Shown piece by piece: positions 1,518-19,341 of a DNA stretch of 64,000 nucleotides. Source of the DNA: an uncultured bacterium (lineage in GTDB: Bacteria; Patescibacteriota; Minisyncoccia; Moranbacterales; UBA2206); assembly GCA_903842445.1 (NCBI GenBank), contig CAIMLT010000003.1:5696-69695 (forward strand), read 5' to 3'. The position numbers and the translations under genes were made by a program. A model generated the notes under the pieces. That model was not told the origin of the DNA. It made no database searches and worked only from the letters and a program-made list of their open reading frames with translations. Each line of letters opens with the position of its first letter. Within the stretch, counting starts at the first letter, position 1.

Positions 1518-3092
1518 TTAAGAGCGCTTAATCACTTGCCCATTTCTATTTCCATTGTAAACCCCGCCTGCCAAAACAAGTTCTCCATTAATAATGACCG
1601 TGTCCACCCCTTTGGAATATTGATAGGGGTTTTTCACTGTAGCTGGACTTTTTATTTTATCTTGATCAAGAATAATTATATCAGCAAAATATCCTTTTTT
1701 CAAGGATCCTCGCTTTTTAAGACCAAATTTTTCCGCCGGCGCGGATGTCATTTTATAAATAGCACCTTCTAGCGTCAATATCTTATCTTTAATAACATAC
1801 TTTTCCAACACTCGCATAAATGCTCCAAAATTTCGTGGATGCACTCTTTCTCCGGTTTTAGCATGAAAAATATCATAGCCTGACCCATTGGTCGCAATAA
1901 AGGATAACGGATGAGCGATAGCTTGTTTGACATTTTCCTCACTCAAGACTTCCATGGAAGTAACCACCATCCCTTCTGAAGCAACTAAAATATCTATAAT
2001 AGCTTCTTCGACTGATTTTTCTTGATTCTGCGCAATCTCAGAAATATTATGTCGCGCCAAGGTTTTGTTCAATGGTGAAATAGCAATTTCAATCTTAGAA
2101 TAATCAAATTCAGATTCGCGCATCTCTGCAATTATTTTTGCTCGAATAACTGGATCCTTAAGTCTGTGTAGCATTATTTTTTTACCACCCTCACAAATCC
2201 ATGCCGGTAAAAAAGAATAAAGAACCGAGCCAGTTGCGGTGTATGGGTAAACATCGAATGTTATATCGATACCATCCTCTTTGGCTTTTTCAATTAAACC
2301 AAAAACTTCTGTCATCTTCGACCAATTTTTTTCTCCAATTACTTTTAAGTGAGAAATTTGCAGTTTAACTCCAGACTCCCTGGCAATTCGAATGGCTTCT
2401 TCGATTGCTTCCAAAATTTCTTTTTGTTCCGAGCGAATATGCGTAGCATAGATACCGTTATATTTTTTTACAATTTTGGCTAAAGCTAAAAGTTCGTCAT
2501 AAGGAGCTAGCCTTGCGTGGGAATAAATCAATCCAGTTGACATACCAAGCGCTCCTTCTTTCATCGCAGAACTCAATGTTTTGTTTAGAATTTCGATTTC
2601 CTTAGGTCGCATACTGCGCACCTCATCTCCGATAATTCCTCGCCGAAGTGTCGCATGACCGACTAGCGTAGCAAAGTTTGGAGAAATTTTCTTTTCACCC
2701 AAAAATGCCAATAACTCTCTAACTTTGAGCCAACTAACATTTATTTTCTTAACATCAACCCACTTCTGAATTGCATCAATCGTTGCTGGAGTGGAAAGAG
2801 GTGCCAGAGATGTTCCACAATTTCCTCCAACAATTGTTGTTATCCCTTGATAGATTAAGCTTTCCAGATGTGGATTTAAAAATATTCTCCAATATGTATC
2901 ACTATGATTATTCACGTCAATAAATCCAGGACAAACCGTTTTTCCCATTGCATCAATTTCAACACTAGCCATTTCGTCTTGCAAATCTCCAATTTTTTTT
3001 ATTTCATCCTCATTAACACCAATATCGGCGCGATATGCCGGCGCTCCCGTTCCATCAATAATATTGGCATTCCTAATAATGATATCGTACAT
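1518..3092 (-). CDS. N-acyl-D-amino-acid deacylase (D-aminoacylase) family amidohydrolase
   Basis: 524-aa ORF with N-terminal MYDIIIRNANIIDGTGAP and metal-dependent amidohydrolase-like architecture (FIDVNNHSD). Confidence 0.65.
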   Translation of the reverse strand: MYDIIIRNANIIDGTGAPAYRADIGVNEDEIKKIGDLQDEMASVEIDAMGKTVCPGFIDVNNHSDTYWRIFLNPHLESLIYQGITTIVGGNCGTSLAPLSTPATIDAIQKWVDVKKINVSWLKVRELLAFLGEKKISPNFATLVGHATLRRGIIGDEVRSMRPKEIEILNKTLSSAMKEGALGMSTGLIYSHARLAPYDELLALAKIVKKYNGIYATHIRSEQKEILEAIEEAIRIARESGVKLQISHLKVIGEKNWSKMTEVFGLIEKAKEDGIDITFDVYPYTATGSVLYSFLPAWICEGGKKIMLHRLKDPVIRAKIIAEMRESEFDYSKIEIAISPLNKTLARHNISEIAQNQEKSVEEAIIDILVASEGMVVTSMEVLSEENVKQAIAHPLSFIATNGSGYDIFHAKTGERVHPRNFGAFMRVLEKYVIKDKILTLEGAIYKMTSAPAEKFGLKKRGSLKKGYFADIIILDQDKIKSPATVKNPYQYSKGVDTVIINGELVLAGGVYNGNRNGQVIKRS

Positions 3093-4130: not shown

Positions 4131-4418
4131 TTATACATCAACATCAGTTATCTTCCAATTAACTCCGCTGGTTTTGATAATTTTAAACTTTGTTTTTTCC
4201 AGGATTGTGTTTTTTGCAATATTTTCTAAACCAAACTTAATATTTTCAATGTTAAGCTCATCAAAATGATTATCATGCTCATGCGCATGTTTGTGATTAT
4301 GCGGAACACTTTTGCTGCCAATTTCTAAGGAAACTGATTTTATTTTCCCCAATTTTTGCGCTAGAGCAATTGCCAAAACTTCATCAACTATTTCTTTGGC
4401 CAAAATGAAATCATGCAT
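4131..4418 (-). CDS. HypA-like hydrogenase nickel-insertion protein lacking the Zn-finger cysteines; His-rich variant
   Basis: The N-terminus MHDFILAKEIVDEVLAIALAQKLGKIKSVSLEIG aligns to HypA MHE...V.L.IG as recalled from memory. The usual CxxC...CxxC is replaced by PHNHKHAHEHDNH. The likely start is the second Met (MHD), which removes the overlap with dfx. Confidence 0.4.
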   Translation of the reverse strand: MHDFILAKEIVDEVLAIALAQKLGKIKSVSLEIGSKSVPHNHKHAHEHDNHFDELNIENIKFGLENIAKNTILEKTKFKIIKTSGVNWKITDVDV

Positions 4419-4419
4419 A

Positions 4420-4797
4420 TTATTTTTTCCATAACCCATGCATATTGCAACAGGCTCTTATCGTGAAATGTTCAGCTTCCAGAAAAAATTCAGCCACAGG
4501 ATCTGTTCCTGGCTCTAGAAATTTTCTGTATGCTCTATGCTCAGTAACAACCTCAATCCATTCAATATAATGTTCGGATTCCATTGGATGAAGAACACTC
4601 CCAACTTGAACAATCAATCCCAAATCGGTCTTTTCCACGATCGGCAAGTGCTTTTCTTGACCTTCTTCAATTTCTGTTTTTTCGACTTCCAACTTCATCA
4701 GTTGTCCACAACAAACTAGCTCTCCTCCACCGAAGCGAACAACTTCAACCATATTTCCACAAATATTACATTCATAGATTTGATTAAGCTCCGTCAT
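4420..4797 (-). CDS. dfx: desulfoferrodoxin (2Fe superoxide reductase)
   Basis: N-terminal desulforedoxin motif CNICGNMVEV...LVCCGQ plus a C-terminal neelaredoxin-type centre (HPMESEHYIEWIE ... CNMHGLW). Confidence 0.8.
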   Translation of the reverse strand: MTELNQIYECNICGNMVEVVRFGGGELVCCGQLMKLEVEKTEIEEGQEKHLPIVEKTDLGLIVQVGSVLHPMESEHYIEWIEVVTEHRAYRKFLEPGTDPVAEFFLEAEHFTIRACCNMHGLWKK

Positions 4798-4830: not shown

Positions 4831-6090
4831 TCAGTGAACTGCGCAACTAATACAAGGATCGTAAGCTCGAATAAAAGCACGCAACTTTTTTTCTTTTTCT
4901 TTATCTTTTAATTTTAAAATTTGTGGGATGTATTCAGCAATGTCATCTTCGAGGTTCGAGAGAAATTGGGCAGTTGGAGTAATGATATTCACATTCTTCA
5001 CATAACCTTTGGCATCAACATCAACATGATAATAAAGTGTTCCGCGCGGCGCTTCAATGGCCGCAACACCTACTCCTTCGCAAACTTTATATTCTTTAGT
5101 TATAACCTCATTCAAATCGCTGTTCAAAAGCTCCAGCATAATCCGCTTTGATTCTTCAATTGATTGGATAACTTCCACCATCTGCGCCAAAATATTATGA
5201 AAAGGATTGTAATCTGGAAATGTCCAACCCAAACTTCTCAGATAGTTTGATGCATTATCTCTTAACTTCGCCCTATTATTGTTTATCCTGGCGATTGCTC
5301 CAACCATATAGCTCTGACCATTATGTTTGACGCGCTTAATCACTTCCTTCTGTTTTTGTAATTCTAAAAAGTTATTTTCAAATTTTTTAACTGAAATATG
5401 CAATCCCAAGTTAGAAATAACATCACCGTCATAAATCGCATATTCACCATTCTTACCCAAGGAAATATATTCGGTTACGCGAGAAAATTCCGGGATTTTT
5501 ATTCCTCTAAAAAACTCTCCCAAACTAAGTGCTATTTGCAGAATATCTTCAGAATCCCCAACCAGCTTTTTTAAAGCCTCTCTATCTGGCGCTTTTTTGA
5601 ATCCACCCACTTCATTGGTTAGCGGATGCACGACTCTACCGCCAACTATTTTCACAATTTCCATTCCATATTCGCGGATTTTAATCGCCATTTTTGCCTC
5701 TGCGGAATACTTGCTTATTAGCTCAATGTCATTATTCATATCTAAGAAATCAGCCAGCGACAAAAAGAAAAGATGCAGAGCATGCGAATGAATAAATTGA
5801 GCGTATTCCAAAAGCGTTCGCAATTTTTTAGTTTCGTATGTCACAGAAACCCCCATAGCGTTTTCGAGAGCTTTTATTGAAGTCAGGTTGTGAACTACCG
5901 GACAAATCCCACAAATCCGCTGAGCAATAAGTGGCATATCTTGATATTCTCGCCCAATAAGCACGCCTTCAATTAAACGAACTCCTTCCTGCACTTGAAA
6001 TTTAGCCGACTTAACGTCACCGTTGAGCACGCTCGCCATAAAGCCAGTATGACCCTCTATTTTTGCAATGTGGTTTATTTTTATCTTCAT
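4831..6090 (-). CDS. [NiFe]-hydrogenase large subunit, group 3
   Basis: 419 aa with N-terminal Ni-binding RICGICPVVH. It ends exactly at DPCISCAVH followed by the stop, so there is no C-terminal extension. Confidence 0.9.
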   Translation of the reverse strand: MKIKINHIAKIEGHTGFMASVLNGDVKSAKFQVQEGVRLIEGVLIGREYQDMPLIAQRICGICPVVHNLTSIKALENAMGVSVTYETKKLRTLLEYAQFIHSHALHLFFLSLADFLDMNNDIELISKYSAEAKMAIKIREYGMEIVKIVGGRVVHPLTNEVGGFKKAPDREALKKLVGDSEDILQIALSLGEFFRGIKIPEFSRVTEYISLGKNGEYAIYDGDVISNLGLHISVKKFENNFLELQKQKEVIKRVKHNGQSYMVGAIARINNNRAKLRDNASNYLRSLGWTFPDYNPFHNILAQMVEVIQSIEESKRIMLELLNSDLNEVITKEYKVCEGVGVAAIEAPRGTLYYHVDVDAKGYVKNVNIITPTAQFLSNLEDDIAEYIPQILKLKDKEKEKKLRAFIRAYDPCISCAVH

Positions 6091-6122: not shown

Positions 6123-7052
6123 CTACTCAAACTTGCAAACAGCTTTCAACGCGCTTAAATCATCCGGAGAAAGCTGAGGATTTTCCATGTTTTGATCAGA
6201 GAGTAGATAATACATAATCGATTGCGGATCCTCGACATGTCCAACGCCTAAAGCATGTCCCAACTCATGCACAATCGTCAGGCGCAAATCGGCAAGTTGC
6301 TTAAACTGATACAAGCTGATCCCCTTGCCGTCATAGAGCCCTTTTTCAAATTCCCGTGAGCCGCCATATTTATTTTTGTATGTCGAAACATTAGCGTTAT
6401 ATTCATTCACAACTTTTTGCTCTTTTGAAACTAAAGCATTGGTTTTTCCAGCCAGACCATTCACTTCTGTCCGCTCTTTTTCGAGTTTATCGTATAATTC
6501 ATTAATTGTCTTCTTCTCTTTCGCTAGATCATTATACTCATCCTGCGATCCGCTATTTTTATTCCAATCCGCGACAGCTTTATTATAGTCCCTCAATTTT
6601 TTTTCATAAGCTACCACGTTGGCGTCATATTTTGCCATCTTCTTTTCATAGATTCCGGCTAAGTCCTCATATTGATTAGCAATTTTTTGGTGTGATATTT
6701 CCAACTGGTCTAAATTACTCGCCAATTTATCCGCCGCGTTCGAGGCAACCTGCCTCTCATCAAAAATCAAATTCAGCTTAAACTGAGCATCTGGCTTATA
6801 TTCAAATAAATTCTTCCCCGACTGCGTTTCCCAAATTTTTTCCGCCTCTCGAATCTCTGCCAAAAAATTATTCGCACTCAAATCAAACCTTGGATCAACT
6901 ATTCCAACAGCATATTGAAACGGCTTGGCACACGGCAAACCAATCCCGGTAAATTCCGAAACGGTTTCTCGCACGGAAGTTTTGTTTTGCAAAATTATCC
7001 CCCAAGCAGAAAAGAGAATTATAATAATGAAATATTGAAAAAATTTTTTCAT
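6123..7052 (-). CDS. secreted matrixin-like (M10) zinc metalloprotease with a coiled-coil region
   Basis: N-terminal signal/TM segment MKKFFQYFIIIILFSAWGIIL. HELGHALGVGH zinc site with Met-turn SIMYY near the C-terminus. Its ATG overlaps the stop of the upstream small-subunit gene (ATGA). Confidence 0.7.
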   Translation of the reverse strand: MKKFFQYFIIIILFSAWGIILQNKTSVRETVSEFTGIGLPCAKPFQYAVGIVDPRFDLSANNFLAEIREAEKIWETQSGKNLFEYKPDAQFKLNLIFDERQVASNAADKLASNLDQLEISHQKIANQYEDLAGIYEKKMAKYDANVVAYEKKLRDYNKAVADWNKNSGSQDEYNDLAKEKKTINELYDKLEKERTEVNGLAGKTNALVSKEQKVVNEYNANVSTYKNKYGGSREFEKGLYDGKGISLYQFKQLADLRLTIVHELGHALGVGHVEDPQSIMYYLLSDQNMENPQLSPDDLSALKAVCKFE

Positions 7053-7942: not shown

Positions 7943-8032
7943 AAGAATAGTTTTATTTGTTTTATTTCTCTTTGTATTCTAACAGATTTAACCTGATTTT
8001 AAAAATCCGGCAAATTACTCTATACTTAGCTT

Positions 8033-9193
8033 ATGGAGTTTGAATTTCCCCTAAAACAAAATAAAGTTATTTTAGCGCTTGGTGGAGAATCCGCTGGCAA
8101 TTTTTCGGTTTGCAATAAGGGTAAAGTTTATTTTTCCAAAGATTTTGGCGATTTACTGGTTGAAAGTAACTTAGCAAATTATAAAAAGGCGGTCTTGAAT
8201 TATCTGAAAAAACATAAGTTTAAGCCTGAAATAATCCTAATTGATCTCCATCCGCTTTTTCACACAACCCTTTGGGGCAAAATGCTCACTAAACAATATA
8301 AAGCCGAATGCATCCAAGTCCAACATCACCACGCCCATATTTTTTCCTCTATCGGCGACAGAATATTGCAATCTGCAATCTACCAACTACCTGATAAATT
8401 CTACGCTCTAGCCATGGACGGAACGGGACTTGGAACAGACGGGAAGATTTGGGGAGGAGAGGTTTTTAAAATTAGTTGTCATTCCCGCGCAGGCGGGAAT
8501 CCAGTCTCATATAATTCAGTTTATAAACTAAATTTACCCTTACACGAGAATACAATAAACTATACTGTCGAAAGAATTGGGCATTTGGAAAATCAAATTT
8601 TGGTTGGTGGAGATTTAGCAATTCAAGAACCAGCGAGAATGTTAATTGGAATTCTAAGTAAATTCCTGAACAAATCTGAAATTTATAATCTAACTAAAAA
8701 ATATTATTCCAAAAACGAATTTGAGGTAATTTATAGCCAACTTAGACAAAATTTCAATTGCCTCGAAACTTCCAGCACCGGAAGAATTTTAGATGCCGTA
8801 TCGCTGCTCCTAGGCTTTTGCGGAAACGAGAGAAAATATAAACATGAACCGATTGATCTACTGGAAAAAAATTCCACTAAACCCTATGAACTTAAGCCAA
8901 TTATAGAAAATAATGTTTTATTAACTACGCCGCTGTTTAAATATTTGATTAAAAATCTGCATAAAGATAAAAAAAGACTCGCCGCCATGGCACAGCTTTA
9001 TCTTGCGCAGGGACTACTTAAGATAATTAAATTAGCTGGTAATTTTGACATTTTTATTTCCGGCGGAATTGCCAAAAATAAAATTATTTCTAAATGCTTA
9101 GAATCCAAAGGCGCCTACGCCAGTAAAATCATCCCTCGCGGCGACGCCGGACTTTCTTTCGGACAATTGGTTTATTATTTATTGAATTATTAA
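8033..9193 (+). CDS. hypF: HypF-like carbamoyltransferase, Kae1-like C-terminal domain only (no acylphosphatase, Zn-finger or YrdC domains)
   Basis: 386 aa with LALGGESAGNF, VQHHHAHIFS (the HypF QHHxAH motif as I recall it), AMDGTGLGTDGKIWGGE and RGDAGLSFGQ. It converges on hypE with overlapping stops. Confidence 0.55.
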   Translation: MEFEFPLKQNKVILALGGESAGNFSVCNKGKVYFSKDFGDLLVESNLANYKKAVLNYLKKHKFKPEIILIDLHPLFHTTLWGKMLTKQYKAECIQVQHHHAHIFSSIGDRILQSAIYQLPDKFYALAMDGTGLGTDGKIWGGEVFKISCHSRAGGNPVSYNSVYKLNLPLHENTINYTVERIGHLENQILVGGDLAIQEPARMLIGILSKFLNKSEIYNLTKKYYSKNEFEVIYSQLRQNFNCLETSSTGRILDAVSLLLGFCGNERKYKHEPIDLLEKNSTKPYELKPIIENNVLLTTPLFKYLIKNLHKDKKRLAAMAQLYLAQGLLKIIKLAGNFDIFISGGIAKNKIISKCLESKGAYASKIIPRGDAGLSFGQLVYYLLNY

Positions 9194-10248
9194 CAAATCC
9201 TCGGAATCAACTTCCCTCTCGGCACCTCAATTTTCTTAAGACTCCCAATATTTGTAGCTAAATATAAGCCTTTTTTCTCATTTTCTCGATTGGAAAACTT
9301 TTTCACAAACCCAATAACCTTAGCTTCTGGGTTGAATTTTTGCAAAATTTTAATAACTTTATCGGCATTTTCTTTGGCAACCGTCGCCACAAACCGACCT
9401 TCGGACGGAAAAGAGAACTTATCGATTCCCAAAAGATTTGAAAGCGCAACTGTTTCTTTGGCAAACGGTAATTTGCTTTCTTCAAGAATAATGCGGACTT
9501 TGGATTTTTCGGAAATTTCATTGAGCACCGCAGCTACTCCGCCGCGCGTCGGATCCTTGCAAGCTGTTAGATATTTCGCAACGCTTTGAATTTCTTTGGT
9601 GAGCGGCTGGCAATCACTTTTGATTTTGGTTTTATAATTAAATCTTTTGGAAAGAAGTGCGACGGCGTGCTCGCCAAGATTTCCGGAAGTAATGACAACA
9701 TCACCCGGTTTTGCACCATTGTTTGAAATAATATTTTCCGCAATTCCCACGCCAGAAGTCGTAATTTCAATTTTGTCGAGTTTGCCTTTTTCCGTAACTT
9801 TCGTGTCCCCGGTAACAATCGGCACGCCAGTAATTTTAGAAATCTGCCCAATCGATTGCATAATTTTTTTGAGATCCGCGATTGGAAAACCTTCTTCCAT
9901 CACCACGCTCAAAGAAATCCCGATTGGCACAGCGCCCATCACCGAAAGATCATTTATCGTCCCACAAATCGCGATTTTCCCGATGTCCCCACCCGGAAAA
10001 AAAATCGGATCAACAATAAAAGCATCTGTCGTAAAAACCAATTTCGATTTTCCCCCTCTCCTTAATAAGCCTGCCTGTCCGGTAGGCAGGGAGAGGGCTG
10101 GGGTGAGGTCAAAAACCGCCCCATCATCATTGGTATTTTTCCATTTTTTAGACCTCGGAAAACTTTTTCTAATTTCCGCAATCAACTCTTCGGATTTCCC
10201 GCCACCACCGCCATCTTCTAGCTCCACAAATTCTTTTTTATTATTCAT
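9190..10248 (-). CDS. hypE: hydrogenase maturation protein HypE (carbamoyl dehydratase)
   Basis: 352 aa ending in the HypE hallmark PRIC, with VDPIFFPGGDIGKIAICGTINDL and VTGDTKV. An in-frame insertion of about 10 aa coincides with the palindromic element at 10068-10092. Confidence 0.85.
   Translation of the reverse strand: MNNKKEFVELEDGGGGGKSEELIAEIRKSFPRSKKWKNTNDDGAVFDLTPALSLPTGQAGLLRRGGKSKLVFTTDAFIVDPIFFPGGDIGKIAICGTINDLSVMGAVPIGISLSVVMEEGFPIADLKKIMQSIGQISKITGVPIVTGDTKVTEKGKLDKIEITTSGVGIAENIISNNGAKPGDVVITSGNLGEHAVALLSKRFNYKTKIKSDCQPLTKEIQSVAKYLTACKDPTRGGVAAVLNEISEKSKVRIILEESKLPFAKETVALSNLLGIDKFSFPSEGRFVATVAKENADKVIKILQKFNPEAKVIGFVKKFSNRENEKKGLYLATNIGSLKKIEVPRGKLIPRIC
10068..10092. repeat. 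24-nt palindromic element (stem cctgcct / aggcagg), copy 1, in frame inside hypE
   Basis: agcctgcctgtccggtaggcaggga matches the copy at 12971-12994 at 24 of 25 nt in the same orientation. It encodes ALSLPTGQAGLL. Confidence 0.6.
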
Positions 10249-10275: not shown

Positions 10276-11322
10276 TTACACCTTAATGAAAAATGTAGGA
10301 AATATTTTTTTGAGTTGTTTTTCAATCTCAAATCCCTCGCAATGCCGCAAAACTCCAAGATACGATTGCAAACTCTTACTGAAAGATTCTACAAAAATCA
10401 AATCTTCCCGTAATAATTTGTGTTTCTGAGAATTTTTTTTGAATATTCTTCTTTTCGTTTTCGTTCGCAAAATCCGGTAATCAGAAAAGTTGACCATTCC
10501 TAGAAAATCAATGCCACTTGCCAGAGTTTTCAAAAAAACCTTATTTGGATGCAATTCCAGCTTCAGTTCATTGGATAAAAACTTTTCAATTTTTGGAATC
10601 TGATTTTCAAGTAAGCTTTTATCTTCCGACAAAAACACAAAATCATCGGCGTAGCGGAGATAATATTTGGCTTTCAGTTTATGTTTTGCAAATTGATCAA
10701 ATTTATTCATATAAATGTTGACGAATAATTGTGAAGTTAGGTTTCCAAGTGGCAAACCTGTATAAATTTTATTTTTGGTGGTAAAACTTTTTATAATATT
10801 TTCCAAAAGATTAATAATATTTTCATCTGGAATATATTCAGCTAGAATTTCCAACAAAATCTGATGATCCATATTAGCAAAAAACTTTTTAATGTCGCAT
10901 TTCAAAATCCAGCAAGTTTTGATATTATTTTTACTGACAATATGGGCATATTCGCGGAATTTATCAATGGCTTTATGTGTGCCTTTTTTGTTTCTGCAAG
11001 AATAGGAATCGGCAATGAAAGTTTTGTCAAAAAAAGGATAGAGAATTCTATATATGGCATGGTGCAAAAGTCGATCGCGCACGCTGGCCTTGTGAATGTC
11101 CCTGGGTTTTGGATCATTGATTTTGAAAGCTTGATAACCGCCGTGTTCATAGGTATGATTGAAAAGATCGCAGTGCAGTGAAAAAATATTATCCATCAGT
11201 TTCATTGAAAATTCTTGCACATCTTTTCTGTTTTTCTTGCCTTTTTCGAATTCTTGCCAAGCCAGAAGTAAGTTTTCTAAACAAATAATATTCTCAAAAT
11301 TATGACTCAATTGAATTTTCAT
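10276..11322 (-). CDS. diversity-generating retroelement reverse transcriptase
   Basis: 348-aa RT with catalytic YADD (LRYADDFVFL) and the DGR-type domain-4 motif GLPLGNLTSQLFVNIYM (SQ in place of the group II QG). There is no maturase/endonuclease domain. Avd, TR and VR lie alongside. Confidence 0.85.
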   Translation of the reverse strand: MKIQLSHNFENIICLENLLLAWQEFEKGKKNRKDVQEFSMKLMDNIFSLHCDLFNHTYEHGGYQAFKINDPKPRDIHKASVRDRLLHHAIYRILYPFFDKTFIADSYSCRNKKGTHKAIDKFREYAHIVSKNNIKTCWILKCDIKKFFANMDHQILLEILAEYIPDENIINLLENIIKSFTTKNKIYTGLPLGNLTSQLFVNIYMNKFDQFAKHKLKAKYYLRYADDFVFLSEDKSLLENQIPKIEKFLSNELKLELHPNKVFLKTLASGIDFLGMVNFSDYRILRTKTKRRIFKKNSQKHKLLREDLIFVESFSKSLQSYLGVLRHCEGFEIEKQLKKIFPTFFIKV

Positions 11323-11323
11323 A

Positions 11324-11713
11324 ATGATACTTCTACTCTTAAAGCCCCCCCCCAGAGGAGTGCCTGCTGTAATTATAAAAGAAAAAGAAACTTATACCTA
11401 TTGGCTAGCTTTGCATCGCAATTTCCCGAAAACTGAACGCTATGGACTTGGAAGAAGAATCGACCAGCTATTCCTGGAAATTCTTGAACTCAGTTTTACT
11501 GCTGCATATTTACCGGCTGATCCAAAAATAATCCTATTGGGAAAAATAATTTCTCGTCTTGATGTGCTTAAATTTTTCTCACAACTCGCTTGGGAAAATA
11601 AATTAATTCCTTCTGAAAAATATCTGGAACTTTCCCAAAAACTGGAAGAAATCGGTCGAATGTTTGGCGGCTGGAGAAAAGGACTTTTGGAAAAGAAAAC
11701 TCCTGCCAAATAA
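11324..11713 (+). CDS. avd: DGR accessory variability determinant (Avd-like four-helix-bundle protein)
   Basis: 129 aa. YTYWLALHRNFPKTERYGLGRR and the C-terminal EIGRMFGGWRKGLLEK resemble the Avd / 23S-rRNA-IVS protein family as I recall the Bordetella phage Avd ending. It is oriented opposite to the RT; the start codon is uncertain because a C9 tract lies at codons 8-10. Confidence 0.75.
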   Translation: MILLLLKPPPRGVPAVIIKEKETYTYWLALHRNFPKTERYGLGRRIDQLFLEILELSFTAAYLPADPKIILLGKIISRLDVLKFFSQLAWENKLIPSEKYLELSQKLEEIGRMFGGWRKGLLEKKTPAK

Positions 11714-11720
11714 GCAGGAG
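11700..11720. other. 7-bp hairpin (ctcctgc...gcaggag) overlapping the avd stop and flanking the 3' end of TR
   Basis: Perfect inverted repeat with a 7-nt loop lying between avd and TR. Confidence 0.35.
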
Positions 11721-11736
11721 AAAAACAGTAGTTTCA

Positions 11737-11845
11737 GAAGAACACCTGGTTGTCATCATTCCACCTATTCGTATCATCGACAGAGTTGGCATTGACGTTC
11801 CAACCATCGTCGTTCCAGTTACAATTCACCGCACGAAGCACACCG
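11737..11845 (-). repeat. DGR template repeat (TR)
   Basis: Near-identical to 12211-12319. In TR-sense (minus strand) it carries A at all 20 positions where VR differs, and it translates in the VR frame to NCNWNDDGWNVNANSVDDTNRWNDDN. Confidence 0.85.
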
Positions 11846-12106
11846 GCATTCTCGAGCAAAGAGCCATCCATTCCACTATCCTTCGAATGCTCTCCGGATT
11901 GTATCGCATTTGGGACATTAAAAGTCCGCCAGCTTTTTGCACCAATTCCTGTATTTTTTTGAAAAGATTATTTTCCATACTATTATGCAAGGCTTGCCCG
12001 GCACAACTCTCGCGAAAAATATCTTAAAGCCATGACACAAAAGCCGTAACCGTTGCGTATCACATGAGTTCATAAAAAGTATAGCAAAAAAATTTGAAAT
12101 AAAAAA

Positions 12107-12152
12107 TGACCCTTTGAATTTTTTTCGATTTTCGAGAAAATTCAAAGGGTCA
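12107..12152 (-). terminator. Rho-independent terminator of the DGR target gene (16-bp perfect stem followed by a T-run on the minus strand)
   Basis: tgaccctttgaatttt / aaaattcaaagggtca with a 14-nt loop. On the minus strand it is followed by ttttttatttc. Confidence 0.55.
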
Positions 12153-12170
12153 AAGTGACAAAGAATCAAA

Positions 12171-12184
12171 GGGACAAGTGTCCC
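12171..12184 (-). other. GC-rich hairpin (gggac aagt gtccc) immediately downstream of the VR and the target stop
   Basis: 5-6-bp GC stem with a 4-nt loop about 10 nt 3' of the stop. This is reminiscent of the cruciform/hairpin needed for DGR homing. Confidence 0.4.
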
Positions 12185-12189
12185 AGAGC

Positions 12190-12867
12190 TTAAGCGGCAA
12201 CAGGAACTCGGAAGAACACCTGGCGGACAGCACGCCACCCATCCGTATCATCGACAGAGCGGGCACGGACGTCCCAACCATCGCCGCACCAGCCACAAGG
12301 CACCGCACGAAGCACACCGTTTTTGTCCCTGATGTAGAAGATGTTGGCATAACCGTTGTTCAAAAGAACGCCGGCTTCACCATTCCGCTGCTTCTCCATC
12401 TGAGAGAACATTTCCGATAAGGTAGTTTCGGCTTTTGCTTCACCACCTATCTCGGCGATGATCAGATCGTCAACCGAGGCTTTTTTCAGTCTGGCACAGC
12501 GAAGTTCCTGCTCACCGATAGGAGTCTCAATTTTGCCATCTTCGCCAAGAAACCACTTCGTGAAATTATCGCCAAGGTAACTGATTTTGACATTAGCCTC
12601 TTTGCTCGTATCAACAATAAACTTATCACGAGCGATAAAATTCACAATTCTTGCTGGAATAGTGACGGTGTTGATCATTTCGAGCAGAATATTGATTATG
12701 CCCTCTGACCAACATTTCTCCTTTCGGAGAAATTTTTTGAATTCCGCAAACCACACTTGGCATGCCTCACCAGATAGTTTTTCCGCCAAATCGCAGATTG
12801 CTCCCAACATTTCTCTTGGAAGATCCACAATCTTACGAACTACTTCACCGAGCATGTCTTTTTTCAT
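12190..12867 (-). CDS. DGR target protein (variable C-terminal C-type-lectin-like region); no signal peptide
   Basis: 225 aa. The C-terminal VR-encoded segment GVLRAVPCGWCGDGWDVRARSVDDTDGWRAVRQVFF corresponds to TR-encoded GVLRAVNCNWNDDGWNVNANSVDDTNRWNDDNQVFF. Confidence 0.8.
   Translation of the reverse strand: MKKDMLGEVVRKIVDLPREMLGAICDLAEKLSGEACQVWFAEFKKFLRKEKCWSEGIINILLEMINTVTIPARIVNFIARDKFIVDTSKEANVKISYLGDNFTKWFLGEDGKIETPIGEQELRCARLKKASVDDLIIAEIGGEAKAETTLSEMFSQMEKQRNGEAGVLLNNGYANIFYIRDKNGVLRAVPCGWCGDGWDVRARSVDDTDGWRAVRQVFFRVPVAA
12211..12319 (-). repeat. DGR variable repeat (VR) at the 3' end of the target gene
   Basis: 20 substitutions relative to TR, all at TR-adenine positions. The 13-bp fully conserved 3' block (ccaggtgttcttc on the minus strand) fits an IMH-like end. 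Confidence 0.85.
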
Positions 12868-13165: not shown

Positions 13166-14206
13166 TCAATTATCATATCTATACTCCACACTACAACTCC
13201 CCTCCCGTGAAACCATGCACGCACCTTGTGGATTATCCGGATTACACGCTTTCCCAAAAAGCGGACAATCTTTTGACGAAATAATCCCTTGCAAAACTTC
13301 GCCACATCGACACGCGCTCGGCTTGGTTTTTGTTTCTTTTTTAATTTTTGAAATCAAATCCCGATAAACAAATTCCGCATCATACTCACGATATTTTTTT
13401 CTAATTTTGAGTCCTGAATTTTTTATTTTTCCAAATCCGCGCCATGTGGCATCACTAATTTCAAAAACTTCCGCAATCATTTTTCTGGCTTTTGGATTGC
13501 CATCTTTCTTGACCAATCGCGAATAAGCATTTTCAACTTTTTTTTCGCCGGAAATAATTTGTGTAAGCAATTTATCAATCGCGATGAGCACATCTTCGCC
13601 GGTAAATCCGGCAATCACTTGCGGAATTTTAAATTGCGCGTAAATTTCTGTTCCGATAATCGCGCTAACATGCCCTGGGTTAATAAACCCATCAACTCTG
13701 ATTTTTTTATTTTGAAGCAGCGCTTCCATTGCCGGCGGAAAAAGTTTATGCGCAGAATAAACGATCAGCCCATTTCTAATCGCCCAAGCTGTCATCCCGG
13801 TCGTTGTTTCAAATCCCAGACCAAAAAAAACCAAATTCGGTTTTTCTTTTTTCATTTCGACCCCTTCAGTTATATCATAAACAATATTCACATCCGCGCC
13901 ATTTCTTCTGGCTTCTTCCAAGCTCATTAAATTTCCCGGAACTTGGATTGCGTCGCCATAAACCGCCACCGGAATTCCATGAAGCGCGAGACCAACCATA
14001 ACATCAATATCAGATTGATCAGTCACACAAACCGGACAACCCGGCCCAGAAACTAAAGTTATATTTTTTGGCAAAATATTTTTTATGCCATTTTCCGCAA
14101 TCGCCTCAGCATGCGTTCCGCAAAGCTCCATAAACCACAAAGGTCGCCCAATTTTTTCAGCTTTTTCGTGAATACTTTTTAAAAAATTTTTTAACTCACT
14201 GTTCAT
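13166..14206 (-). CDS. hypD: hydrogenase maturation protein HypD
   Basis: 346 aa with MELCGTHAE, GPGCPVCVT and a C-terminal CPLFGKACNP...GACMVSREGSC motif. Confidence 0.9.
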   Translation of the reverse strand: MNSELKNFLKSIHEKAEKIGRPLWFMELCGTHAEAIAENGIKNILPKNITLVSGPGCPVCVTDQSDIDVMVGLALHGIPVAVYGDAIQVPGNLMSLEEARRNGADVNIVYDITEGVEMKKEKPNLVFFGLGFETTTGMTAWAIRNGLIVYSAHKLFPPAMEALLQNKKIRVDGFINPGHVSAIIGTEIYAQFKIPQVIAGFTGEDVLIAIDKLLTQIISGEKKVENAYSRLVKKDGNPKARKMIAEVFEISDATWRGFGKIKNSGLKIRKKYREYDAEFVYRDLISKIKKETKTKPSACRCGEVLQGIISSKDCPLFGKACNPDNPQGACMVSREGSCSVEYRYDN

Positions 14207-14345: not shown

Positions 14346-14564
14346 TCACACGCCAGCCTTAAGCTCTGTTTTCAAATACCCTTTCATTTCACTAGCATAA
14401 TCCGCATCCATCTTCTCAATCGCAAAACCCGCGTGCACCATCACATACTCACCAGCTCTCACTGAAACTAAAGAAATATTGATTTCTTTCTGGATCCCAT
14501 CAAAATCAACTGTTGCCAGTTGATTTTTGATAGAAATAATTTTTCCAGGAATAGCAAGGCACAT
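14346..14564 (-). CDS. hypC: hydrogenase maturation protein HypC
   Basis: 72 aa starting with the canonical MCLAIPGKII. Confidence 0.85.
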   Translation of the reverse strand: MCLAIPGKIISIKNQLATVDFDGIQKEINISLVSVRAGEYVMVHAGFAIEKMDADYASEMKGYLKTELKAGV

Positions 14565-14568
14565 ATTA

Positions 14569-15624
14569 TTATAATCTTGTATTATTTTTTATTTTCCCCG
14601 TAACTATTTTCCCCGCGTCTCTCACTAGTCTTGCTACCTCTCGATCAGTTAACACATAATCTAAAAACTCGCTTTTTTGGGCTTTTTTACTAATTTTTGA
14701 AGAAATAAAAAAAGTTCGGATATTTCTTGGATCAATTTTTTCCCGCTTGGCATCCGTAGTTTTAACATTTTTTATTATCTCATCTTCTCTGTTTTTATCT
14801 TCGTCTTTTAAGTTTATAATTCTTTCAAAACCTAAAGCAAAAAATAATTTTTCTAGATTTTGCTCTGGGGTTATGTTTTTTATTTGTTCTTTTATTTTAT
14901 CTAAAATTCCAAAGTCAAAAACTGCGACAGAAAGCTTTTTCAGATCAGATAGATCGCTCGCGATTTTCTCAAGATTATTTTGATCTGTGAGCGCCGCCGT
15001 AGGACACGCTCTGACACACTCACCGCAAAAACTGCAATCTAAAACTTTTTCATATGGCGTCCCCACAATCACATCTCCCGCGCGATTATTAAAGCCAAAC
15101 TTCTTCTCTGGACAAATGCTTATACACCTTCGACATTCCACGCAAAATTCCGAATTTCGAGAAACACACGGATTATCATTTTCCACTACAACGCGCGACC
15201 AATTGTCATGCACTAAATTCAATTCTTCTTTGCTCGTCATCTCGCCACGTCTCGGCACAAAATGAAAGTTTTCAATCCTATATTCTTCCGCCAATTTCTG
15301 GAGTTCACACATCCGATTTTTCTTGCAAGTCACGCATTTCCCCGCGTGATCCGCCCAAAGAAGCTCCAGATTAATCCGCCGAGCCTTTTGGACTTTTTCG
15401 CTTTCGATGAACACTTCCAAACCTTCGCAAACTTTTGTCGTGCAAGAAGTCACTAACTTTTCCGTCTTATTTGTTTCCACCAAGCAGAGCCGACATGCTC
15501 CTCCACGTGAAAGTCCCTCAAATGAACACAGCGTCGCAACCGGAATATTTTTCCGCCGACAAACATCCAGAATAGTTTCTCCGTTTTTTACTGTATATTT
15601 TTTATTATTGATTTTAATTTGCAT
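14569..15624 (-). CDS. HoxU / NuoG-N-terminal-like iron-sulfur protein (2Fe-2S plus two 4Fe-4S ferredoxin motifs)
   Basis: N-terminal 2Fe-2S cysteines (CSFEGLSRGGACRLC), then CVECRRCISICP and CSFCGECVRACP, followed by a C-terminal extension of about 120 aa. Confidence 0.8.
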   Translation of the reverse strand: MQIKINNKKYTVKNGETILDVCRRKNIPVATLCSFEGLSRGGACRLCLVETNKTEKLVTSCTTKVCEGLEVFIESEKVQKARRINLELLWADHAGKCVTCKKNRMCELQKLAEEYRIENFHFVPRRGEMTSKEELNLVHDNWSRVVVENDNPCVSRNSEFCVECRRCISICPEKKFGFNNRAGDVIVGTPYEKVLDCSFCGECVRACPTAALTDQNNLEKIASDLSDLKKLSVAVFDFGILDKIKEQIKNITPEQNLEKLFFALGFERIINLKDEDKNREDEIIKNVKTTDAKREKIDPRNIRTFFISSKISKKAQKSEFLDYVLTDREVARLVRDAGKIVTGKIKNNTRL

Positions 15625-16135
15625 GTTCTATAAATTTTATAACCTTATTTAATAAACCACTTACTGGCTCGTCAGATTTAAGAAATATTTTACTTTCCGG
15701 CATATGTGCATAATCACATCTCATCTTTTCATACTTTCTCTGTCTATCATGATGACATCTATTTCTTTCTCTGTTTTCAAATCGAATCCGCCTTTCTTTC
15801 TCATCAATTTCAAGAACTATCGTATAAATACTAACCCCATACTTCACTTTCCATGTCTCAAAAATCCTTCCCTCTGGTTCAAAGTTGAAAGTAGATTCTA
15901 TAATTACATCAATTCCGCGATTAATATTTTCTTCAGCAAGATCCATGATTGCCTTAACTGAAGGATACCCTAATTTTATACTATCCTCTAGTGTCGACAT
16001 CCTCATCGAATTATACATTGATTCCTTGACTGAATCCTTATGTAAACAAAAAATGCCAATCTTCTCAGATAACTTATCGGCCAAAGTAGTTTTTCCAACC
16101 CCAGGAACTCCGCAAATTATAATAAGTTTACTCAT
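15614..16135 (-). CDS. P-loop kinase / NTPase (AAA_33-like) of unknown function
   Basis: 173 aa with the Walker A motif ICGVPGVGKTTLADKL. It overlaps the hoxU-like start by 11 nt and lacks the HypB GTPase motifs. Confidence 0.55.
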   Translation of the reverse strand: MSKLIIICGVPGVGKTTLADKLSEKIGIFCLHKDSVKESMYNSMRMSTLEDSIKLGYPSVKAIMDLAEENINRGIDVIIESTFNFEPEGRIFETWKVKYGVSIYTIVLEIDEKERRIRFENRERNRCHHDRQRKYEKMRCDYAHMPESKIFLKSDEPVSGLLNKVIKFIEHAN

Positions 16136-16142
16136 AAGTTGA

Positions 16143-17375
16143 TCAGTCTTTTAATATTTCCAATTTATCCACTGCGTCGCGCGTTGCCACCGCCGCAAAT
16201 TTTCCCAAGGGGCAAAAAGTTGTGCTTTCTAGTGTCCACAAAATATCTTGCATTGCTTCCTTATCTCTTTGCGAAATTTCGCCATCTGCTAAACGTTCGA
16301 TAATCTCATTGAGTCGAAAAGTTCCTTCGCGACAAGGAATACATTTTCCACAAGATTCGCGCCGAAAAAATCCAGTCCAGGATAATAGCAAATCATAGAT
16401 ATTTATTGATTTATCTACAACTAAAATTGTCCCTGACCCAAGGGGAATATTATTATTTTTTCCATAGTCTAGTTTTTCATCTAATTCTTTTTCAGTTGCC
16501 AATCTTCCACTTGCTCCACCGACTTGCGCAAACCAAAAATCCTTCCCTCTCGGAAGTCCTCTGCCTAAAGTTTCTATCGCTTCACGAATTGTAATTCCAG
16601 TTGGCGCTTCAATAACGCCTTTATTTTTAACCGCACCACCAAGAATAAAAATTTTTGTGCCCGGACTATTTTTTGATCCGATCGCCGCATATTTTTTTCC
16701 CCCATTTTGAATTATGAAAGGAATATTGGCCACCGTTTCTGCATTATTTATCACTGTTGGCTTTCCAAAAAGTCCCTTTTCAGTTGGATAGGGTGGACGA
16801 ATTTTCGGCTCGCCACGATTACCCTCAATAGAATTTATGAGTGCCGTTTCTTCTCCGCAAATATAAGCACCGGCGCCAGAAAAAATTTCGATTTCTAGGA
16901 AATATTTTGATCCTAATATTTTTTCTCCCAGAAATTTATTCTTCTGCGCTTCCAAAATTGCATTTTCCAAAATATCTTTTTGCGTTTCATAATTTCCATT
17001 AATATAGACATAGGCTTTTTTTGCTCCAATAGTCAAAGCAGCTATAATTATTCCTTCGAGAAGTAAGTGCGGATTATTTTCCACAATCATTCGGTCTTTA
17101 TACGTTCCAGGTTCTGATTCATCAAAATTGCAAATAAAATATTTTTCTTTGATAGAATTTTTTGCCACTACCTCCCATTTCTGTCCAGTTGGAAAACCAG
17201 CCCCGCCGCGACCACAAAGACTTGATGATTTAATTTCCCCTAGGGCTTTTTGCTGATTCATTTTTTCAATGAATTTTTTTAGAGCGGAGTAACCACCCAC
17301 ACCCAAATAATCCTCAATTTTAAGTGGATTAATCTTACCCCAATAATTGGTCAGAATTTTTATATCTTTCATCAT
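16143..17375 (-). CDS. HoxF / NuoF-like NAD(P)H-binding flavoprotein subunit
   Basis: 410 aa with GRGGAGFPTGQKWE, FDESEPGTYKDR, GAGAYICGEETALI and C-terminal 4Fe-4S cysteines (CGKCIPCREG). Confidence 0.85.
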   Translation of the reverse strand: MMKDIKILTNYWGKINPLKIEDYLGVGGYSALKKFIEKMNQQKALGEIKSSSLCGRGGAGFPTGQKWEVVAKNSIKEKYFICNFDESEPGTYKDRMIVENNPHLLLEGIIIAALTIGAKKAYVYINGNYETQKDILENAILEAQKNKFLGEKILGSKYFLEIEIFSGAGAYICGEETALINSIEGNRGEPKIRPPYPTEKGLFGKPTVINNAETVANIPFIIQNGGKKYAAIGSKNSPGTKIFILGGAVKNKGVIEAPTGITIREAIETLGRGLPRGKDFWFAQVGGASGRLATEKELDEKLDYGKNNNIPLGSGTILVVDKSINIYDLLLSWTGFFRRESCGKCIPCREGTFRLNEIIERLADGEISQRDKEAMQDILWTLESTTFCPLGKFAAVATRDAVDKLEILKD

Positions 17376-18863
17376 TTATGTTCCGCTATATTTAACGGGC
17401 ATTGAATATTTACCAGATATTTCGTTCGTTAAGTAATAAAATATATTATCCTTATCTTCTTTTACAACAATATCACCAACAGATTCACGCCCAAGCATGC
17501 TTCTCCATCTTCCACTTTCTAAGTCAATAAAAATTTTCTTATCGCTATAGAAAATATACTTTTCATCAATTGGATGAAAGTCGCTTTGCTTATTTAATGG
17601 ATATTTATTTATCACTCTAAATACTGGATTACTTTTATTGTAAGGATCTTGAGAGATTATAAATACATCATTCATGCTATATTTATCACGATTTGGGTTT
17701 TTGATTCTTAAACTTTCCAAATCAATTCCCACCTCATTTGCATATACTAAACAATATATTTTTTTATTAGAATAAGTAACATTGCTACAATCATTTAATT
17801 TTGGGAAATTTTCTATGTTAGGTTCTATGCTGTTATCAGATACGAACTCCGCCACATTGAGAAGCACATATATCTTTCTATTTTTATCATAATAAAGCTT
17901 GTCTTTTTCATCATCCCAAGAGAATCCCTCTGGAAGAATTTCCTTACCACCATAGCTAAATAGCTTCTTCCTAAATGGAGCTTTTCTGTACACCTCTCTA
18001 TATTTTTTTGATTCAACATCAAATAAAATAAGCACCACATCTTCCGAAGATTCATCGTCATATTGACAGGTCAAATATTTTTCACTAACAGACCATTCGC
18101 ATTTTTCAGGACAAATATGGGAACTAGACTCATGCAACTTCTTTTTCGCCACACAGACATCTAAAATTGGCGTTAAATCGCTCGTCTTATATATATATTT
18201 CTCGAAATTAGGCTTGGTTTTCTTGAAATCAACATCAGCTAAGAAATACGATCCCTTGGGAGAAATAAACTCAAAAGCTAAAAAATTATGCAATTCTGAA
18301 TTATTTCTATCAAAAGTCCTGAGAACATTCCTCTCTGAACCGTCTATTTTACTCACCACAATTGAAGATTTGCTATTGCTAGACTCAACTCCGTTGTCAT
18401 ATTCAATATAATATTCTAAGTATATAAATTTAGCATCTGATTTGATAACATCGTTAAACTCGTACTTCTGATTATATTCTATTTTATATTCCTTCTCTTG
18501 ATTATACCCTGTCGATCCACTTAAGAGTTGTATCCCTAGAGCAACTATGGCCAAAGATGCAGAGCCAATCAGAAATCTTTTTTTAAATTTGTAAAAAAAA
18601 TCTGCTCTATATTTTAAGATTATAAAAATCAATGTAAGCTCAATGAGTAAAAATGAGTAGTAAAATAAAAAAAATGGTTCAAATATACCTCCGGCAACGC
18701 CAAACATATAAATAATTGTTCCGGCACCAAGAAGAGACATCTCGCCACCAAACACATCTCCTATCTCAAGAAGTAGCCCTGTTAGATAAACCACAGAAGA
18801 AAAATCAACAAACAGACAAATGTACACAAGCACGGAAAAGAAAAATATTTTTATATTTTTCAT
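17376..18863 (-). CDS. hypothetical membrane protein (four N-terminal TM helices plus a large soluble domain) within the hox operon
   Basis: 495-aa ORF with hydrophobic N-terminal segments. Its stop abuts the hoxF-like ATG with zero gap. Confidence 0.55.
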   Translation of the reverse strand: MKNIKIFFFSVLVYICLFVDFSSVVYLTGLLLEIGDVFGGEMSLLGAGTIIYMFGVAGGIFEPFFLFYYSFLLIELTLIFIILKYRADFFYKFKKRFLIGSASLAIVALGIQLLSGSTGYNQEKEYKIEYNQKYEFNDVIKSDAKFIYLEYYIEYDNGVESSNSKSSIVVSKIDGSERNVLRTFDRNNSELHNFLAFEFISPKGSYFLADVDFKKTKPNFEKYIYKTSDLTPILDVCVAKKKLHESSSHICPEKCEWSVSEKYLTCQYDDESSEDVVLILFDVESKKYREVYRKAPFRKKLFSYGGKEILPEGFSWDDEKDKLYYDKNRKIYVLLNVAEFVSDNSIEPNIENFPKLNDCSNVTYSNKKIYCLVYANEVGIDLESLRIKNPNRDKYSMNDVFIISQDPYNKSNPVFRVINKYPLNKQSDFHPIDEKYIFYSDKKIFIDLESGRWRSMLGRESVGDIVVKEDKDNIFYYLTNEISGKYSMPVKYSGT

Positions 18864-18888: not shown

Positions 18889-19341
18889 CTATATCCACTC
18901 CGCAAAAATTTTATATATAGAGCTTGCTGTGACCCTCTCATAAACTTTCCTATTGACAATGACGATTGGTCCATCTCCGCAACGCCCAAGACAACTGATT
19001 TTTTTCAATCTTACTTTTGGATTAAATTTATCTCCAACTCTAATCCGAAAATGGTTTTCGATCTCCCGGATGACATTAGTTGATTGACCTAAATTGCAAT
19101 CGCCTCCTGAGCAAACCTTAATCTCCAAATTCGCCGGTTTTTTAGTCTCAACTAAATCATAAAAGCTAGCTGTTTCATAAATCTTAGTGATTGGAAATTC
19201 AAAATACTCAGCAATCTTCTGGGAATCTTTTTCACAGATATAACCAAAATTCTTGCTGATTTTCTTTAGCGCTAAAAGCAAATTCTGCGCTACCGGATCA
19301 AACTCTAGCAATATTTTTTCAACTGTAATATTGTTTCTCAT
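18889..19341 (-). CDS. HoxE / NuoE-like thioredoxin-fold 2Fe-2S subunit
   Basis: 150 aa with CSGGDCNLGQ...CLGRCGDGP cysteine spacing. Confidence 0.8.
   Translation of the reverse strand: MRNNITVEKILLEFDPVAQNLLLALKKISKNFGYICEKDSQKIAEYFEFPITKIYETASFYDLVETKKPANLEIKVCSGGDCNLGQSTNVIREIENHFRIRVGDKFNPKVRLKKISCLGRCGDGPIVIVNRKVYERVTASSIYKIFAEWI

Follow-up and report, generated by a model that had tools for sequence, protein, structure and literature searches.

A HypF consisting of the Kae1-like domain alone in the hydrogenase gene cluster of an uncultured Patescibacteria genome

On a 64,000-nt stretch of DNA from an uncultured bacterium of the Moranbacterales (GenBank assembly GCA_903842445.1, contig CAIMLT010000003.1, positions 5,696 to 69,695 of the forward strand), which in its entirety is called the window below, we describe a gene, referred to as hypF-C, whose product is the complete Kae1-like module of the [NiFe]-hydrogenase maturation protein HypF and nothing more. 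The features of this gene and of the region 5' of it are:

8033-9193, + strand: hypF-C, encoding a 386-aa protein with the Kae1-like carbamoyltransferase domain alone (from the open reading frame (ORF) listing, Pfam, NCBIfam, phmmer, AlphaFold2 and Foldseek)
7943-8032, no strand assigned: 90-bp divergent intergenic region between the hydrogenase small-subunit gene and hypF-C, with no coding remnant of the HypF N-terminal domains
8057-8353, + strand: HypF_C, the first Kae1-like subdomain (residues 9-107; PF17788, E 8.8e-22), with LALGGESAGNF, DLHP and QHHHAH
8417-8461, + strand: DGTGLGTDGKIWGGE loop (residues 129-143), invariant in the family
8474-8563, + strand: lineage-specific in-frame insert of ~30 aa (residues 148-177) in a hairpin loop, seen as an alignment gap against the HypFs in the PDB
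8481-8500, + strand: GC-rich palindrome ATTCCCGC-GCAG-GCGGGAAT within the insert, translated as CHSRAGGNP and predicted to form an 8-bp hairpin
8564-9166, + strand: HypF_C_2, the second Kae1-like subdomain (residues 178-378; PF22521, E 1.8e-41)

The ORF starts with an ATG, and since an in-frame TAG lies two codons 5' of this start, no 5' extension is possible. In addition to the motifs of the first subdomain, the second carries RIGHLENQ..GGDLA, TSSTGRILDA, SGGIAKNKII and PRGDAGLSFGQ (with D371). A preliminary description of this DNA had read the gene as a HypF reduced to its Kae1-like domain and lacking the acylphosphatase, zinc-finger and YrdC-like domains, and Pfam indeed finds no match in the protein to Acylphosphatase (PF00708), zf-HYPF (PF07503) or Sua5_yciO_yrdC (PF01300). 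The reduction itself is borne out by Pfam, NCBIfam, alignment to PDB sequences and fold search alike. The NCBIfam equivalog model for hypF, TIGR00143, gives 217 bits, below its curated cutoff of 466, and its best stretch covers model positions 521-739 of 741, which identifies hypF-C as a partial HypF. In a phmmer comparison with the PDB, residues 4-147 and 178-379 align with residues 393-527 and 531-754 of the 772-aa HypF of T. kodakarensis (4g9i), which amounts to ~393-761 overall, and the HypF structures of C. subterraneus and E. coli are matched more weakly over this same part. AlphaFold2, run on 28 family members, gave a model with a mean predicted local distance difference test (pLDDT) score of 84.8 and a predicted template modelling score (pTM) of 0.84, with pLDDT <50 solely at residues 153-173. 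When this model was compared to the PDB with Foldseek, the HypF structures 3vti, 3vth, 3tsp and 4g9i came out on top (E 6e-25 to 2e-22, template modelling (TM) score 0.72-0.76), whereas TsaD/Kae1 structures were far behind (E ~4e-8 at best, TM ~0.5), i.e. ~17 orders of magnitude worse. Affiliation with TsaD/Kae1, named beforehand as the finding that would speak against HypF, is thus not what emerged: the protein has no Pfam TsaD match, and E-values are ~1e-25 for HypF against ~1e-8 for TsaD/Kae1. At E<=0.01, neither TsaD (PF00814) nor Carbam_trans_N (PF02543) has a Pfam match in hypF-C; a PF16861-type match is absent as well, and the protein ends 8 residues past the Kae1 domain.

Among the motifs that had been listed for the protein, QHHHAH (residues 97-102) and DGTGLGTDGKIWGGE were exact, and two were misquoted, the sequence reading GGESAGN for "GGE..N" and GDAGLSFGQ for "GGLS.GQ". 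These are trivial transcription slips, and the motif matches are far beyond chance. H98, H99 and H102 are invariant in the 28 family members, and so are D129 and D371. The DGTGLGTDGKIWGGE pattern is identical in the HypFs of T. kodakarensis and Citrobacter and in C. necator HypF1, and the motifs that are both invariant in the family and common to archaeal and bacterial full-length HypFs and C. necator HypF1 include DLHP, QHHxAH, DGxGxGxDGxxWGGE, TSSxGRxLDA, SGGxxxN and PxGDxGxSxGQ. The HxxxH, DG.G and GD metal motifs and the nucleotide loops of the ASKHA (acetate and sugar kinase/Hsp70/actin) fold also agree with those of canonical HypFs. In hypF-C, the HxxxH, DG.G and GD motifs would provide metal ligands, as in HypF generally, and D129, the acidic position conserved in the Kae1-like motif of HypFs, is presumably one of them. 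The retention of the ASKHA loops suggests that an adenine nucleotide is probably still bound.

The loop that carries the insert is 12 residues long in canonical HypFs, whereas its length is 10-46 residues in the family to which hypF-C belongs, that of the candidate phyla radiation (CPR), as seen in 120 homologues. The stretch of low pLDDT lies within the insert. A homologous insert is found at the same site in one relative, P0009, and differing inserts occur there in other hypF-C homologues. The palindrome occurs once in the window, and the same palindrome type is scattered at sites in four other CPR loci (L042, L058, L067 and L079). This suggests a small mobile palindromic element that is tolerated in a disordered surface loop.

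The gene is part of a hydrogenase/hyp cluster, with the following features:

4131-4439, - strand: HypA-like protein, 102 aa, with weak Pfam and NCBIfam HypA matches
4420-4797, - strand: desulfoferrodoxin
4831-6090, - strand: [NiFe]-hydrogenase large subunit, group 3, sulfhydrogenase-like, with RICGICPVVH and a C-terminal ...DPCISCAVH
6123-7052, - strand: M10-like peptidase, 309 aa
7049-7942, - strand: hydrogenase small (delta) subunit, diverging from hypF-C
9190-10248, - strand: hypE, carbamoyl acceptor/dehydratase (TIGR02124, 326.7 bits against a cutoff of 251.6)
10276-12867: diversity-generating retroelement, between hypE and hypD
13166-14206, - strand: hypD (Pfam HypD, E 4.9e-123)
14346-14564, - strand: hypC, protein starting MC... 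(Pfam HupF_HypC, E 2.2e-25)
14569-15624, - strand: HoxU-like
15614-16135, - strand: small kinase (AAA_33)
16143-17375, - strand: NuoF-like
17376-18863, - strand: 495-aa protein with predicted membrane segments, unannotatable
18889-19341, - strand: NuoE-like

hypF-C and hypE are arranged tail-to-tail, and their stop codons share TTAA at 9190-9193, a 4-nt overlap on opposite strands. The HypE C-terminus is EVPRGKLIPRIC, which ends in the PRIC acceptor motif. All ORFs of the cluster are intact. The fact that the large subunit retains both CxxC active-site motifs implies an Fe(CN)2CO centre and hence the need for a supply of cyanide, i.e. the large subunit is the client of the cyanide ligands.

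The family to which hypF-C belongs is large. A word-indexed protein search gave 868 matches, and the best 120 of these are 357-458 aa long, have PF17788 and PF22521 only and share 52-63% identity with hypF-C; the named members among them are mostly Moranbacteria, Parcubacteria or Patescibacteria, and one is annotated "hypF1". The GTDB collection of species representatives yielded 377 stretches coding for a relative, and the best 80 of these, taken with 10-kb flanks and at most 21 kb each, form our set of related loci (L004-L083). Most of the 80 carry Patescibacteria labels, and ~10 bins are otherwise named (uncultured Bdellovibrionales, Gammaproteobacteria), which look like binning labels. One metagenome-assembled genome, SRP231805_co4_149, holds two distinct Kae1-only hypF copies (L043, CAZHTL010000005.1, and L055, CAZHTL010000130.1), which are 53% and 51% identical to hypF-C; the bin is labelled Bdellovibrionales and the genes are CPR-type, so that there are either two clusters or a mixed bin. 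Counting ORF families within 6 kb of hypF-C, as clustered over the 80 loci, the most frequent neighbours are hypE (68/80), hypC/hypD (58/80) and the small and large hydrogenase subunits (50/80 and 43/80), followed, among the neighbours shared with the window, by GAPDH, HoxU-like, HypA-like (24/80) and others. The recurrent families that are missing from the window are, by inspection, housekeeping genes (phosphomannomutase-like, MurD-like, TrpRS-like, RNase J-like and ValRS-like). Since the short length, the invariant catalytic residues and the synteny are all conserved, an assembly artefact or a pseudogene is ruled out.

The other maturation genes appear pared down as well. No homologue of HypB or of a HycI/HybD-type endopeptidase was found in the window and the 80 loci by tblastn (E<=1e-3, two queries each, limited sensitivity). 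The large subunit ends at the His right after its C-terminal CxxC (DPCISCAVH) and has no C-terminal extension, therefore no cleavage would be needed. The HypA-like protein has an MHD N-terminus, a His-rich stretch, HNHKHAHEHDNH, and no cysteine, and therefore no Zn site, and it may combine HypA and HypB-like nickel handling. The preliminary description had offered a minimal maturation pathway as an alternative to an external carbamoyl donor, and these three observations, the missing HypB and endopeptidase, the unextended large subunit and the Cys-less HypA-like protein, lend that alternative some support.

Neither the N-terminal half of HypF nor a linked partner was found. When the complete HypFs of Sulfurimonas (753 aa) and of Citrobacter (788 aa) served as tblastn queries, they matched the window solely at 8054-9181, the Kae1 part, and their residues 1-400 were found nowhere in the 64 kb. 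The acylphosphatase-Zn-YrdC halves of the same two proteins and E. coli TsaC gave nothing at E<=1 by tblastn in the window and the 80 loci (1.12 Mb). That no N-terminal HypF fragment lies in the intergenic region 5' of hypF-C, as originally stated, is thus true of the whole window and of the 80 related loci. A Pfam scan of 47 window ORFs showed no Sua5/YrdC, acylphosphatase, HypF finger or carbamate kinase, and the window ORFs beyond these 47 look like a ribosomal-protein/EF-Tu/RNA-polymerase block. A linked partner gene was also not among the families obtained by clustering the 80 loci, which yielded hyp/hydrogenase and housekeeping genes alone.

Judging from sequence, we put at roughly three in four the probability that hypF-C is a functional, naturally minimal HypF, i.e. 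a stand-alone, ASKHA-fold, metal-dependent carbamoyltransferase of the Kae1-like type that serves the cyanide-ligand branch of [NiFe]-hydrogenase maturation in a Patescibacteria (CPR) genome, probably one of the Moranbacteria. Following the established HypF/HypE pathway (PMC6022934, PMC4506123, PMC9654439), hypF-C would carbamoylate the C-terminal Cys of HypE at its metal centre, HypE would then dehydrate the carbamoylated Cys to a thiocyanate with ATP, and the cyanide would be passed from HypE to the HypCD-bound iron. Since the acylphosphatase and YrdC-like modules, which lead from carbamoyl phosphate through carbamate to carbamoyl-AMP, are absent, the activated carbamoyl donor would have to reach the Kae1 site from outside. 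It can be hypothesized that carbamoyl-AMP is made in trans by an unlinked YrdC-family enzyme, e.g. the housekeeping Sua5/TsaC, and such a supply in trans, suggested by analogy, is our preferred guess, albeit a tentative one. In t6A (N6-threonylcarbamoyladenosine) synthesis, TsaC and TsaD are likewise separate proteins, and the unstable adenylate TC-AMP travels between them through solution (PMC9654439). Several points weigh against a minimal HypF fed in this manner. No YrdC/Sua5, acylphosphatase or carbamate kinase is present in the window ORFs scanned and none is linked in the 80 genomes, which makes the donor in trans pure inference. Carbamate and carbamoyl-AMP are labile and are channelled internally by canonical HypF (PMC6022934), which counts against efficient free diffusion. 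Moreover, the sole Kae1-only HypF that has been studied, HypF1 of C. necator, was inactive in anaerobic E. coli (PMC5350229, PMC9100943). Finally, the scans span 64 kb here and at most 21 kb per related genome, so that there is room for a full-length paralogue elsewhere.

The alternative that survives best is a self-sufficient Kae1 domain, which would convert ATP and carbamoyl phosphate or carbamate to carbamoyl-AMP in its own site or transfer the carbamoyl group directly from carbamoyl phosphate to the HypE Cys; in canonical HypF, the three N-terminal domains would then speed up the reaction without being necessary for it. The fact that no partner gene is linked in 80 genomes would be accounted for in this manner, as would the invariance of the nucleotide-binding loops in a protein that is missing the adenylating domain, and 377 species with reduced genomes have kept the short form, beside a pared-down maturation set. 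However, no adenylation by a member of the Kae1/TsaD family is known, this step always being carried out by a YrdC-type domain in HypF, TobZ and t6A synthesis (PMC9654439, PMC6022934), HypF1 alone failed to complement E. coli hypF mutants (PMC5350229), and the channelling of labile intermediates in canonical HypF speaks against self-sufficiency too. We consider the idea doubtful, and rank the supply of carbamoyl-AMP in trans slightly above it.

A split gene, in which the acylphosphatase, zinc-finger and YrdC half is encoded elsewhere and assembles non-covalently with hypF-C into an ordinary HypF, is unlikely. Pairs of an N-half ORF followed by a C-half ORF do exist in other lineages, as on three unrelated metagenomic contigs where hypF appears as two overlapping ORFs (L091, 219-2376; L092, 4043-6231; L093, 6964-9250), and the inspection spanned only the lengths of DNA given above. 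In those three cases, however, the halves are adjacent and overlap by 14-49 nt in different frames, with the breaks located where the Kae1 domain begins or within it (within it in 2/3). They may be frameshift errors, pseudogenes or real splits, and look like frameshifts. The gene order in L092, large(-)/small(-)/hypF(+), is the same as in the window. No N-half lies near hypF-C in the 80 loci. Furthermore, an N-half profile made from three full-length relatives (P0263, P0264 and P0277) and searched against a 5.8-billion-protein set gave, among its best 120 matches, mostly partial HypFs of archaea, Campylobacterota and others. These 120 include no Patescibacteria-labelled stand-alone N-half, nor do they reveal a sizeable family of free-standing N-halves of ~380 aa sharing ~45-50% identity, whereas the search with the C-half filled with Patescibacteria proteins. 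If hundreds of CPR genomes encoded an N-half, one would expect such a family, which makes a split with an unlinked N-half in CPR unlikely.

It is still less probable that hypF-C is a decaying remnant, i.e. the relic of a degraded hyp cluster whose hydrogenase is left unmatured or obtains its cyanide from a host. CPR genomes are reduced and these bacteria are often episymbionts, neither HypB nor the maturation protease was found, and a retroelement sits within the cluster. Nevertheless, decay is hard to reconcile with catalytic and structural motifs that stay invariant in hundreds of species although overall identity is 50-63%, with cluster ORFs that are all intact and with a large subunit that keeps both its CxxC motifs.

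The weakest alternative, that a t6A-type enzyme (TsaD/Kae1) or an O-carbamoyltransferase (NodU/CmcH/TobZ) was wrongly assigned to HypF, has in its favour the common ASKHA/Kae1 fold and a precomputed PF02543 label on a few hypF-C homologues, and can be practically dismissed, since TsaD/Kae1 is contradicted by the missing PF00814 match, the far better HypF fold and hypE as conserved neighbour, and NodU/CmcH/TobZ by the missing PF02543 and PF16861-type matches and the lack of a C-terminal YrdC-like domain.

The diversity-generating retroelement consists of a reverse transcriptase gene (RVT_1; 10276-11322, - strand), bAvd (11324-11713, + strand) and a target ORF (12190-12867, - strand) whose 225-aa product has no family match. 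Its template repeat (11734-11845) is 112 nt long and 81% identical to the variable repeat (12208-12319) at the 3' end of the target ORF, and 20/21 differences fall at template adenines when read on the coding (minus) strand; a reverse transcriptase of the same family is near hypF-C in 5/80 related loci. The M10-like peptidase gene (6123-7052) encodes a protein with a hydrophobic segment at its N-terminus and a zinc peptidase of the matrixin type (M10) at its C-terminus, sits between the large- and small-subunit genes with a 4-nt overlap with the latter, and has family members near hypF-C in 12/80 loci. The NuoE/NuoF/HoxU-like diaphorase genes are interrupted by the genes for the 495-aa membrane protein and the AAA_33-type kinase, neither of which has a homologue in the 80 related loci. 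At 1518-3092 (- strand), beside GAPDH, lies a gene for a 524-aa Amidohydro_3 protein, found within 6 kb of hypF-C in 16/80 loci; it is a generic PRK09061-type amidohydrolase with no evident tie to carbamoyl chemistry.

How the CPR form arose can be approached through its relatives. An exhaustive HMMER search of 1.84 billion representatives gave 4823 relatives with E<=1e-3, of which 126 had E<=1e-30. From E ~1e-69 onward these include full-length proteins, namely P0263 (728 aa), P0264 (732 aa) and P0277 (723 aa), whose identity is 46-47% where they match. In a domain scan of ten relatives, five were four-domain HypFs (P0263, P0264, P0274, P0277 and P0282), in P0265 the acylphosphatase domain was replaced by a FAD-binding one, P0276, P0288 and P0280 had YrdC-like and Kae1-like domains only, and P0247 was Kae1-only; the protein cluster of P0265 contains an Aenigmarchaeota-labelled member. 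P0263 is encoded on a contig (L094, GC 28%) with the same convergent arrangement as the window, hypF running toward hypE-hypD-hypC, and the two loci share 41% identity in the HypF Kae1 domain, 44% in HypE, 47% in HypD and 48% in HypC. The closest full-length HypFs (P0263 on L094, P0264, and P0277 on L095), which stem from AT-rich small-genome contigs, are 41-47% identical to hypF-C in the Kae1 domain, but keep all four domains in 723-732 aa where hypF-C has the Kae1 domain alone. In a neighbor-joining tree of Kae1 domains (354 columns, 100 bootstraps), the HypF1 clade had a support of 99/100 and was sister to the full-length HypFs of alpha/betaproteobacteria (HypF1 with Azospirillum full-length HypF, 95/100), to the alphaproteobacterial members of which HypF1 is 40-47% identical, and it never joined the CPR clade (0/100). 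With an identity of 27% in addition, common descent of the hypF-C clade with HypF1 was rejected, and the Kae1-only HypF of CPR is by these comparisons a truncation independent of the HypF1 clade. The simplest history would be that hypF was full-length in an ancestor with the convergent arrangement, and that a forebear of the Moranbacteria-type clade then lost its first ~370-390 codons through a deletion at the boundary of YrdC and Kae1.

The textbook HypF is a four-domain machine that channels two labile intermediates. It is conceivable, though we would not expect it, that in Patescibacteria the Kae1-like domain and HypE suffice for making cyanide ligands, with carbamoyl phosphate or carbamate and ATP used in one site or with carbamoyl-AMP taken up as a by-product of Sua5. 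If this were true, the textbook protein's N-terminal domains (acylphosphatase, Zn-finger and YrdC) would be dispensable, as would its substrate channel, and, with no HypB or protease and a Cys-less HypA-like protein, this would be the smallest natural [NiFe]-hydrogenase maturation set. hypF-C is not a new protein kind, databases already labelling these sequences HypF, nor is the external need for carbamoyl-adenylate of a Kae1-only HypF a new idea, as it has already been published for C. necator HypF1 (PMC9100943). The novelty lies in a second lineage of Kae1-only HypF that is independent and very widespread, in reduced anaerobic genomes and with no linked partner. It makes the HypF1 puzzle of where the carbamoyl-adenylate comes from sharper, given that no full-length copy was seen and that life is apparently anaerobic, and also easier to test, since the number of candidate genes in such small genomes is low. 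The finding matters for the question of whether CPR bacteria mature the [NiFe]-hydrogenases predicted for them, and is relevant to the design of minimal maturation sets for heterologous hydrogenase production. The group 3b hydrogenases of Moranbacteria and Berkelbacteria have been described, with maturation unmentioned (PMC10811913). A literature search pairing HypF with CPR or Patescibacteria found no paper on a truncated HypF in CPR, and the CPR-wide truncation seems not to have been discussed yet in the literature searched.

Compared to the canonical four-domain HypFs (E. coli, 3tsp; C. subterraneus, 3vth/3vti; T. kodakarensis, 4g9i), hypF-C has in common the Kae1-like fold, the motifs and the partner HypE, and differs by scoring below the TIGR00143 cutoff and by missing the three N-terminal domains, which leaves it with one active site out of three and without the internal channel (PMC6022934).

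The hypF1 gene on pHG1 of C. necator H16 (L001:10034-11218, 394 aa) encodes the same two Pfam domains as hypF-C. The Kae1-only layout has reportedly been on record since 1998 from this Cupriavidus HypF1, and proteins of the HypF1 type occur commonly among Burkholderiales and Pseudomonas, with the NCBI names "carbamoyltransferase HypF" and "Kae1-like domain-containing protein". Like hypF-C, HypF1 has PF17788 and PF22521 alone in ~390 aa, is encoded in a hyp operon beside hypC/D/E, and raises the same question over the source of its carbamoyl-adenylate (PMC9100943); it has been called "an unusually truncated version" (40 kDa) that is inactive in E. coli (PMC5350229) and one that "likely requires carbamoyl adenylate" (PMC9100943). 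Nevertheless, HypF1 is no nearer to hypF-C (~27% identity) than full-length HypFs are (26-29%). C. necator has at least one full-length HypF (hypF2) besides HypF1 (PMC5350229, PMC4377017), with three HypF-like places on pHG1, whereas in the CPR organisms no second HypF copy was seen in the 64-kb window and the 80 loci of at most 21 kb. HypF1 serves O2-tolerant uptake hydrogenases in an aerobe, and hypF-C is found with a group-3 soluble hydrogenase in a presumed anaerobic fermenter. The TsaC/Sua5 and TsaD/Kae1 proteins of t6A synthesis act on other substrates, threonylcarbamoyl-AMP and tRNA A37, and hypF-C is not of the TsaD family; with a YrdC-type and a Kae1-type protein working as separate polypeptides, however, the t6A system is the best functional analogy for a Kae1-only HypF.

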